From Escherichia coli (GTDB lineage: Bacteria > Pseudomonadota > Gammaproteobacteria > Enterobacterales > Enterobacteriaceae), in assembly GCF_003334765.1 (NCBI RefSeq), contig NZ_QOWT01000002.1: a stretch of DNA of 64,000 bases, one strand, 5' to 3'. Positions within the stretch are counted from its first letter, which is position 1. Each line of letters starts with the position of its first letter. Of the stretch, positions 58,401 through 61,400 are shown one piece after another. The position numbers are program-made.

Positions 58401-61400
58401 GCCCGGTAATATCACTGCGGATTTCAGCGAGCGTTTTCCCGACTACGTGGACCTTGCCGATATACGGGTAAAACATAGTGCCGTCAGGCTGTACCCAGTT
58501 GCCGGTGTCGCTGGAGCTGCGGTACTGACCGGCTGGCGTGGTGAGTTCCGGGTGATCCCAGACGGTGACATTCAGAACGTCGCCCGGCCCGACGCGATAC
58601 TGGTAATTCGCGATCTCACTTTCCAGCGTCATATTGGGGCGCGCTACATTCGGGCGTGGGCGTAATTGGTCAATCAGGCGCGGGGTCAGCGGATAAACAT
58701 TCACCATTTTGTCGAGATCGAAATCAGCGTCCTGCTGTTTGATGACGTCTTTGCCCATCGTCGACATATTGCTGCCCGGAAGTACTGTGCAACCGCTTAT
58801 CAAGGTTACTGACACCAATAATGGCATCAATTTCATTTTGGATTTCATCATTGTTTATTTATCACTTTGGCAGAGTAATTATCCTGTGCACTATTAATAG
58901 CAATGTCGCCATGCACATTTACCTTGCAGTTAATTGAATACAAATTTAACTGGCATCAGTCCTAAAAAAATTGATTTCATCCGCAGGCTATTGACAGAAT
59001 AATTCAGACTGGTCTTTCAGGCATCCAGACACGCTACCGCCCCTGGCTTTTTAGCTACCAATACACTGATTTAGCTTAATTTTTCAAACCCTCTCTGCAT
59101 ACAATCGTTGATGAGAAAGGGTTATTGCGGAAATTAACTTCCGAATATAAGGTGACATTATGGTAATTGAATATTGGCTCTCCAATAATGCAGGAGGAAG
59201 TGTTACAGCTAACGGAATAGCAGGCAAGGTAACAATTCGGCAATTGGCTATTTTTAAGAATTATATTAAGTGTCATTCAATATGGTTTTTAGGAGTTTCT
59301 TTAGGTTGACAATATTTAATATTGCGTCTCCACATGCGATATTTCTTAAATAATGTTTTATTATTACCACTTTTAATTCAGGGATAATGTGAGGTTATTA
59401 CCCTCAAATAATATGAGATAAATAGTGCTGCAACATTGCATTTTTGCCCCGATTTATCCATGATCGAATTGTGACATTTGTCATACAACGAATAGGTTTT
59501 GTACTTACTATGGAATGGATTGCCGATCCGTCTATCTGGGCCGGGTTAATCACGCTGATTGTGATCGAACTGGTCCTCGGCATTGATAACCTGGTCTTTA
59601 TTGCCATCCTCGCCGAAAAACTACCGCCGAAGCAGCGCGACCGCGCACGGGTTACCGGGCTGCTGCTGGCGATGTTAATGCGCCTGTTACTGCTGGCGTC
59701 AATCTCCTGGCTGGTCACCCTGACTCAACCGCTGTTCAGCTTCCGCTCGTTTACCTTTAGCGCCCGCGACTTAATCATGCTGTTTGGTGGTTTCTTCCTG
59801 TTGTTCAAAGCCACGATGGAGCTGAACGAACGGCTGGAAGGGAAAGACAGCAATAATCCCACACAACGCAAAGGTGCGAAGTTCTGGGGCGTGGTGACGC
59901 AAATTGTGGTACTGGACGCCATTTTCTCACTCGACTCAGTGATTACCGCCGTCGGGATGGTCGACCATTTACTGGTCATGATGGCCGCCGTGGTTATCGC
60001 TATCAGCCTGATGTTGATGGCCAGCAAGCCGTTAACGCAATTTGTTAACAGTCACCCGACGATCGTTATTCTCTGCTTAAGCTTCCTGTTGATGATTGGC
60101 TTTAGCCTGGTGGCAGAAGGTTTCGGCTTCGTCATTCCGAAAGGCTACCTGTACGCTGCCATTGGTTTCTCGGTGATGATCGAGGCGCTCAATCAGTTGG
60201 CTATCTTTAACCGGCGACGTTTTCTTTCCGCTAACCAGACGCTGCGCCAGCGGACTACCGAAGCGGTAATGCGCCTGCTTAGCGGGCAAAAAGAAGATGC
60301 GGAACTGGACGCCGAAACCGCGTCCATGCTGGTGGATCATGGTAACCAGCAGATCTTTAATCCGCAGGAACGGCGGATGATTGAGCGGGTACTTAATCTT
60401 AACCAGCGTACCGTCAGCAGCATTATGACGTCGCGCCACGATATTGAGCATATCGATCTCAACGCGCCGGAAGACGAGATCCGCCAGTTACTGGAGCGAA
60501 ATCAGCATACGCGGCTGGTGGTTACCGACGGTGATGATGCAGAAGATTTGCTCGGTGTTGTTCACGTTATCGACCTGCTACAACAGTCACTGCGCGGCGA
60601 ACCGCTCAACCTGCGGGTGTTGATTCGCCAGCCGCTGGTGTTCCCGGAAACCTTGCCGTTGTTACCTGCCCTGGAGCAGTTCCGTAATGCCCGCACGCAC
60701 TTTGCTTTTGTGGTGGATGAGTTTGGCTCGGTGGAAGGGATTGTGACATTAAGTGACGTCACTGAAACCATTGCCGGTAACTTACCGAACGAAGTGGAAG
60801 AGATCGACGCCCGCCATGATATTCAGAAGAATGCGGACGGTTCCTGGACGGCGAATGGTCATATGCCGCTGGAAGATCTGGTGCAATATGTGCCGCTGCC
60901 GCTGGATGAAAAACGTGAATATCACACCATTGCCGGGCTGTTGATGGAGTATTTGCAACGTATTCCAAAACCTGGCGAAGAAGTTCAGGTGGGGGATTAT
61001 TTGCTTAAAACGTTGCAGGTGGAAAGCCATCGCGTGCAGAAGGTGCAGATTATTCCACTGCGTAAGGATGGCGAGATGGAGTACGAGGTGTGATGGTATC
61101 GGTCATTTTACCCGATAGCCGAAAGGAATAAGATGAGGGAACCGCGCCAGCGGCGATTTACCGCCGGGAGCCCGGGTTGCCAGGGTGGTGGCGATTGAGC
61201 CACCCTGGCACGTTCACCGGCTTGAGCGTTCCATAGTAGTGAGGAACATCAAGTGAACGGAACAGCCTTCGATCTTACATATTCAGAATATAATGGTGCC
61301 GCCGCGAACGCCTGATGCGACGCTTTACGCGTCTTATCAGGCCTACAGGACAGGTCACCTGGTAACCTACATCTTCTCCAGCAACTTCTTCACATCTTTG

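Follow-up and report, generated by a model that had tools for sequence, protein, structure and literature searches.

Map of the wza-yegH control region in an Escherichia coli genome, with the published RcsAB box, an inferred cps core promoter and a conserved candidate for a second Rcs site

The wza-yegH spacer as the control region of the colanic-acid operon

The spacer between the divergently transcribed genes wza and yegH is the established region from which the colanic-acid (cps/wca) operon of E. coli is controlled by Rcs, RfaH and H-NS, and its biology is already known. Taken as a whole, it is best explained as this known cps promoter region, arranged divergently to a short promoter region that belongs separately to yegH (probability about 0.85), and an overall architecture consisting of the published RcsAB box, the promoter and the JUMPstart/ops element is highly probable. 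Within the window (i.e. the whole stretch of 64,000 nucleotides that was analysed), the RcsAB box published for wza lies 35 bp upstream, centre to centre, of the site at 59255..59270 that had been singled out in a first-pass annotation. That site belongs to a different element, Block B, and we see about even odds that Block B is a real Rcs-binding site, which would make it a second and promoter-proximal candidate.

The spacer is 658 bp long and is bounded by the 5' side of the wza ORF (58851, minus strand) and the ATG of yegH (59510, plus strand). Its GC content is 0.31-0.40 in windows of 200 bp, compared to 0.50-0.61 in the flanking genes. The earlier description of an AT-rich, divergent control region of about 660 bp was borne out by these figures, by the ORF limits and by the identity of the locus with that of K-12. 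The spacer of E. coli O145 str. RM9872 is 100% identical to that of the window, and among 5426 complete E. coli genomes, 4819 cover at least 80% of the spacer. In K-12 MG1655 the spacer has the same length and differs by 12 substitutions, none of which falls within the RcsAB boxes, the -35, the -10 or JUMPstart. The locus is that of the cps (wza) promoter region of E. coli K-12 (Stout 1996; Wehland & Bernhard 2000; RegulonDB wzap), from which no essential difference was found; the strain of the window is O145/EHEC-like.

According to the literature, initiation over the AT-rich spacer is silenced by H-NS, and wza is activated when phosphorylated RcsB (RcsB~P) and its unstable partner RcsA bind the RcsAB box. 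RNA polymerase recruits RfaH at the ops sequence of JUMPstart, leading to read-through of the operon of about 20 genes. The region is a textbook case of envelope-stress control of capsule synthesis, to which a confirmation adds little. What is gained is a coordinate map of the window that places the published RcsAB box, JUMPstart/ops and the inferred promoter with its start (Table 1).

Table 1. Features of the wza-yegH region in coordinates of the window; distances are given relative to the inferred wza transcription start.
Feature	Position	Strand	Basis and remarks
wza CDS, 379 aa, first gene of the colanic acid operon	57712..58851	-	ORF/annotation
wza-yegH divergent intergenic spacer	58852..59509	.	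658 bp, 31-40% GC
Distal leader, long nearly invariant blocks, no obvious Shine-Dalgarno	58852..59029	-	alignment
ops 12-mer GGCGGTAGCGTG	59030..59041	-	pattern match; about +151
JUMPstart element	59030..59068	-	Rfam RF01707, 57.3 bits
Inferred wza transcription start, about 59191	59189..59193	-	position of the -10 and conservation; about 2137583 in K-12 NC_000913.3
Inferred -10 hexamer AACACT (AACAAT in most genera), after TGT/TGC, extended -10-like	59199..59204	-	conservation 0.995
Inferred -35 hexamer TTGCCT	59222..59227	-	conservation 0.987; pattern match
Block B, CTTAATATAATTCTTAAAA	59252..59270	-	unique match; includes the first-pass site; candidate second Rcs site
Block B 14-mer, TAATATAATTCTTA	59255..59268	-	centre about -70.5
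Box A, published wza RcsAB box TAAAGAAACTCCTA	59290..59303	-	exact unique match; centre about -105.5
TGTCAAYA motif, nearly invariant, directly 5' of box A	59304..59311	-	alignment
Site C, RcsAB/RcsB-box-like 14-mer TAAGAAATATCGCA (TAGGAAATATCGCA in most genera)	59335..59348	-	matrix score; centre about -150.5
Conserved yegH-proximal block	59436..59485	+	alignment conservation; putative
Possible yegH promoter, TTGCAT and CATGAT, 17 bp apart	59436..59441 and 59459..59464	+	putative
Palindrome TGTGAC-N4-GTCATA in the yegH-proximal block	59470..59485	+	putative
yegH CDS, TerC-family membrane protein	59510..61093	+	ORF/annotation

For a phylogenetic footprint, 80 yegH loci were collected with one genome per species, and the spacer was taken only where wza adjoins yegH. 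Column conservation was determined from an alignment of 65 Enterobacteriaceae wza-yegH spacers, which include Escherichia, Salmonella, Citrobacter, Enterobacter, Kosakonia, Kluyvera, Leclercia, Lelliottia, Trabulsiella, Superficieibacter and others. The yegH loci of Klebsiella and Raoultella have no wza-type promoter beside yegH and thus added nothing to the footprint. The best 120 Wza homologues are all at least 85% identical and, judged by source name, nearly all from Enterobacteriaceae, with no E. amylovora or Pantoea among them. Background column conservation in the alignment is 0.52-0.59. The blocks that rise above this level are TGTCAAYA together with box A, Block B, the promoter, JUMPstart, the distal leader and a block adjacent to yegH.

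The published RcsAB box and the core promoter

For E. coli wza, Fang et al. 2015 (PMC4381331 Table S1, compiling Wehland & Bernhard 2000 and Stout 1996) give the RcsAB box as TAAAGAAACTCCTA, and this sequence has a single exact match in the window, which we call box A. The operator published for wza is thus located at 59290..59303 and not at 59255..59270, where the first-pass annotation had noted a candidate Rcs site; a box mapped elsewhere in the spacer is what that annotation had itself named as speaking against its proposal. Together with the preceding TGTCAAYA, the box A region forms one conserved block (59311..59286 in the wza sense). Conservation of box A across the 65 genomes is 0.856 overall, with 0.90 for the right half and its AAAA flank (AATCCTAAAA) and 0.79 for the left half. 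The RcsAB box's right half has been assigned to RcsB (PMC4325325). In Citrobacter and Salmonella the left half is degenerate (TCAATAAAATCCTA) and the score of the box in the weight matrix described below drops to about 3 bits; the scores of Block B and site C remain high there.

The promoter, which had earlier been left unplaced, was located by conservation at 59199..59227 (minus strand), within a conserved stretch that reads CCTTGCCTGCTATT...TTAGCTGYAACAATTC in the wza sense. The pair TTGCCT-17-AACA(C/A)T has the arrangement of a sigma70-type promoter, for which hexamers 16-18 bp apart are expected; both hexamers are conserved in the orthologues, and the spacing of 17 bp is found in all 65 genomes. 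Its match to the consensus is weak (7-8 of 12 positions). We infer that this hexamer pair is the core promoter of cps and that it is activator-dependent. A generic sigma70 scan missed the pair because of the poor consensus match, as would be expected for an activator-dependent promoter. The sole match returned by that scan, TGGAGA-16-CATAAT (59184..59157), lies in non-conserved sequence and was rejected as the cps promoter. No sigmaE-type promoter (GGAACTT, N15-17, TCnRA, with up to 2 mismatches) was found on either strand; databases are stated in one paper to list a sigmaE promoter here.

Judged from conservation, which falls off directly downstream, transcription of wza would start near 59191, about 7 nt past the -10. 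The wza leader would then be about 340 nt long, and 324-365 nt in most genera. The colanic operon has been described as having one promoter upstream of wza, with a -10, a -35 and an RcsAB box (PMC2478693). In a delta-hns delta-stpA strain, ChIP has shown a sigma70 peak upstream of wza, and H-NS covers the wza promoter in the wild type (PMC9765446).

A conserved element between the published box and the promoter

The 16-mer at 59255..59270 reads TAAGAATTATATTAAG on the plus strand, and the whole of Block B reads CTTAATATTAATCTTAAAA in the wza sense (59270..59252). With a column conservation of 0.949 and an identity of at least 95% across the 65 genomes in 15 of its 19 columns, Block B is the best-conserved upstream element, and both its sequence and its upstream position are maintained in the orthologous promoters. 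In every one of the 65 genomes it is separated from the -35 hexamer by 33-34 bp, although the DNA between the two is not conserved (0.58), and in 64 of the 65 it stands 34-36 bp from the right arm of box A. Being nearly invariant and standing at a fixed distance from the conserved -35/-10, Block B is a good candidate for a second Rcs site.

Conservation of this kind might also stem from a feature on the plus strand, either a 49-aa ORF (59160..59309) that PGAP annotates as a hypothetical protein in many E. coli genomes, or a divergent promoter, of which the -10-like TATATT on the plus strand could be a part. However, the ORF is intact in only 2 of the 65 genomes, both Escherichia, and contains an internal stop in K-12, and this very improbable reading was therefore rejected. 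Rfam finds nothing at the ORF, and TATATT is not accompanied by a conserved -35, since its flanks are at background conservation.

Read in either orientation, Block B has 10 of 14 positions in common with the RcsAB consensus TaAGaatatTCctA. A consensus search (TAAGAATATTCCTA) with up to 3 mismatches gave no match in the spacer; because only 10 of 14 positions match, the site was missed by the consensus TaAGaatatTCctA, and a weight matrix was needed. Four of the five key RcsAB nucleotides (T1, A3, G4, T10, C11) are present, with G4 missing on the minus strand and C11 on the plus strand. There is one canonical RcsB half-site, TCTTA (59255..59259), which is the promoter-proximal half. When compared to the box of the RcsB homodimer, TN(G/A)GAN4TC(T/C)NA (PMC7913699, Huesa et al. 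2021; also Filippova et al. 2018), Block B and site C are each one position off, Block B at position 4 (G4) and site C at position 12. In TAGGA/TAAGA, it is the G and A bases that RcsB recognizes (PMC5829831), and one half-site of Block B is without the G that is contacted by K180/S184 of RcsB. Absence of this G would fit a heterodimer partner on that half, or weak binding.

The imperfect match could alternatively mean that Block B is functional for reasons other than Rcs, for example as a site for another activator or repressor, or as a high-affinity site of nucleation or bending for a nucleoid protein such as H-NS, and that its likeness to a box is a by-product of AT-rich palindromy. We rate this as possible, at clearly less than even odds. 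Apart from the four consensus positions and the one key position that do not match, it is favoured by the conserved A-tract that flanks Block B, by an alternative reading of the element as a direct repeat (CTTAAT-N6-CTTAAA), and by the H-NS reported over the promoter (PMC9765446). Against it stand the arrangement as a 7+7 inverted repeat and the presence of the canonical half-site TCTTA, both of which suit binding by the RcsB family, and the right arm AATC(C/T)TAAAA, which Block B shares with the published box A. To our knowledge, no other known E. coli factor motif compared by eye fits Block B: IHF and the repeats of OmpR, PhoP and CpxR do not, and a PmrA-type repeat needs a periodicity of 11 bp, as opposed to 12 bp in Block B.

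A further reading is that cps has its true or principal RcsAB operator in Block B, with the published box as a secondary one. Conservation is far higher in Block B (0.949) than in box A (0.856), whose left half is degenerate in Citrobacter and Salmonella, and the centre of Block B, about 70.5 bp upstream of the inferred start and at an invariant distance from the -35, is in a typical class I position. Class I activators typically act at distances such as about -70. Nevertheless, we consider this reading improbable: the box listed for wza is TAAAGAAACTCCTA at 59290..59303, and it was in the wza box that changes at conserved nucleotides, made by Wehland and Bernhard in 2000, reportedly abolished exopolysaccharide production. 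The reading that we prefer is that Block B would act as an extra Rcs site, for RcsB or RcsAB, that is proximal to RNA polymerase and placed at class I distance.

Weight-matrix scores and a possible array of Rcs sites

A weight matrix was built from 16 published boxes, with that of wza left out. The training boxes score 11.0-19.2 bits. In E. coli, Block B scores 9.1-9.4 bits (10.7-11.5 in most genera), box A scores 8.5 bits and is thus below Block B, and site C scores 9.3-9.9 bits. The loose resemblance to an RcsAB box that the first-pass annotation had seen at 59255..59270 exceeds what chance would give, as judged from the clustering of such scores described below and from conservation; the site is not the published box. 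All three E. coli elements (8.5-9.9 bits) are below every training box, and the 64-kb window contains about 17 positions with scores equal to or above those of the spacer elements, so that sequence similarity alone is weak evidence. The weight for Block B as an Rcs site comes from conservation and geometry instead.

Exactly three positions in the spacer score at least 8.5 bits, and they are found within 94 bp, where 0.16 such positions would be expected in the whole spacer. Three positions at this threshold were not reached in any of 2000 first-order shuffles of the spacer. The third of these elements, site C, has a mean column conservation of 0.78; in most genera it is located at a fixed distance of 45 bp from box A, but Kluyvera, Superficieibacter and Trabulsiella lack it. 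It may serve as a third Rcs site and would then act from near -150. The spacer probably carries auxiliary Rcs sites that are absent from the literature consulted; neither Block B nor site C is present in the compiled list of known RcsAB boxes (PMC4381331 Table S1).

Other RcsAB boxes (amsG of E. amylovora, cpsA of P. stewartii, galF of E. coli K30 and Klebsiella, tviA of Salmonella, rcsA, and flhDC) share with the wza elements a 14-bp, 7+7 inverted repeat of the type TAAGAAT-ATTCTTA. The wza elements also resemble the published boxes, with their right half TC(C/T)TA, in lying upstream of an Rcs-controlled promoter. In contrast to them, the wza elements are weaker (8.5-9.9 against 11.0-19.2 bits), have one canonical half-site each, and form a spaced array at about -150, -105 and -70.

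Tentatively, the colanic promoter might be driven by three half-canonical Rcs boxes that form a conserved array at these positions, with Block B as the invariant site next to the polymerase. Activation of cps by RcsB independently of RcsA has been described, and Block B could be the point of entry for it within such an array. The published box would then tune the dependence on RcsA, and would vary between genera. The spacings of 35 and 45 bp between the boxes do not correspond to whole helical turns, and it is therefore not obvious that they form a simple cooperative array in phase. Binding of RcsB or RcsAB to Block B and site C, if it occurs, could help to explain why cps responds not only to RcsAB but also, when RcsB~P is high, to RcsB alone, and how mucoid regulation could survive the drift of the published box's left half in Salmonella and Citrobacter. 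A three-box array would be a modest, incremental refinement. No description of it was found in the secondary literature, and the primary papers on wza (Stout 1996; Wehland & Bernhard 2000) may already discuss an array.

The transcribed leader and the yegH-proximal block

The presence of a JUMPstart element in the spacer, as annotated in the first pass, was confirmed. RF01707 is the only Rfam match in 58000..60500; it covers the full length of the model (1-38) with 57.3 bits against a gathering score of 35 (E 6e-12), which places the element in this family. Column conservation of JUMPstart in the 65 genomes is 0.89. The ops sequence (GGCGGTAGnnTG) is found between the inferred start and the ATG of wza, i.e. 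in the operon leader, and it is on the non-template strand, as GGCGGTAGCGTG reads in the wza sense. A ChIP signal for RfaH has been reported at the wza ops site in a delta-hns delta-stpA derivative of CFT073 (PMC9765446). Like the other JUMPstart/ops-RfaH leaders (rfb, rfa, hly, kps, tra), that of wza has a full JUMPstart with ops in a long leader, and no difference from them was found. A second copy of ops is present in the window ahead of the O-antigen genes (33670..33681).

Conservation is also high in the distal leader, where it amounts to 0.93 over the last 50 nt before the wza ATG. A long-range helix in the leader, pairing AATTATTCTGT (59008..58998) with ACAGGATAATT (58888..58878), was proposed by RNAalifold. 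Hardly any variation is seen in its arms, and the few changes that occur disrupt pairs with none compensating; the structure is thus unsupported. At the opposite end of the spacer, the conserved block next to yegH contains both a possible promoter for this gene and a palindrome (Table 1).

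Published and candidate Rcs boxes in the wza-yegH spacer

When the Citrobacter and Salmonella loci of the spacer alignment (L007-L018, L023 and L014) were compared, the left half of box A, the published wza RcsAB box, was found to be degenerate (TCAATAAAATCCTA, about 3 bits), whereas site C, a third box-like 14-mer (TAGGAAATATCGCA/TCTCA), is still strong at 10.8-14.1 bits, as is Block B, the RcsAB-like candidate of the first-pass annotation. Kluyvera displays the opposite pattern, with a strong box A and no site C. Conservation of the TGTCAAYA motif exceeds that of the left half of box A.

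In the Klebsiella and Raoultella loci L053, L062, L067, L076, L077 and L079, yegH does not have wza as its neighbour, and the 1.5 kb upstream of yegH yielded neither a wza-type promoter nor Block B nor a nearby ops.

The stretch that holds the cps promoter and Rcs boxes is also covered by an annotated ORF. Only 2 of the 65 Enterobacteriaceae spacers have this ORF intact, and the K-12 version carries an internal stop, so the annotation almost certainly does not represent a real gene.

Features of the spacer and of other RcsAB-box and ops candidates
Feature	Position	Strand	Remarks
CATTGCAaTTT ... TTTATCCATGATC, then palindrome	59436..59485	+	yegH-proximal block, found by conservation
TGTCAAYA	59304..59311	-	almost invariant; abuts 5' side of box A
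WP_162829205.1	59160..59309	+	49-aa "hypothetical protein"; PGAP annotation in many E. coli genomes
Second ops 12-mer, GGCGGTAGCGTG	33670..33681	-	ahead of presumed O-antigen genes
TAAGAATGTTCCTG	33850..33863	-	2 mismatches to RcsAB box consensus
TAAGTTAATTCTGA	19432..19445	-	RcsAB-box-like 14-mer, 10.5 bits
TAAAGAAAATCTGA	19534..19547	-	RcsAB-box-like 14-mer, 12.6 bits

The yegH side and the wza leader

Judged by its sequence, the conserved block beside yegH may contain the yegH promoter (TTGCAT, 17 bp, CATGAT), a candidate that was not called by a generic promoter scan. The palindrome that ends the block, TGTGAC-N4-GTCATA (59470..59485, +), has a variable centre and also matches the CRP spacing (TGTGA-N6-TCATA); at the putative start it may serve as an operator or form a 5'-terminal hairpin.

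The distal wza leader (58852..59029, -) shows conservation that is unusually high for non-coding DNA, and in the final 50 nt of the leader conservation is 0.93. No Shine-Dalgarno sequence is evident for wza. RNAalifold proposed an 11-bp long-range helix in the leader, in which 59008..58998 pairs with 58888..58878, and a second helix that spans the start codon, with no covariation for either. Insertion of IS1 between JUMPstart and wza has been reported to give a stronger colanic-acid phenotype (PMC8117528 supplement).

Candidate sites elsewhere in the window

The second ops lies downstream of a 297-aa galF-like ORF (33942..34835, -). About 170 bp upstream of this ops is TAAGAATGTTCCTG, the best match to the RcsAB box consensus in the entire window. 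TAAGTTAATTCTGA and TAAAGAAAATCTGA fall in the spacer separating minus-strand ORFs of 468 and 388 aa, which from size and position we take to be gnd and ugd. Each scores higher than every wza box within the window, and TAAAGAAAATCTGA is similar to the wza box of other genera.
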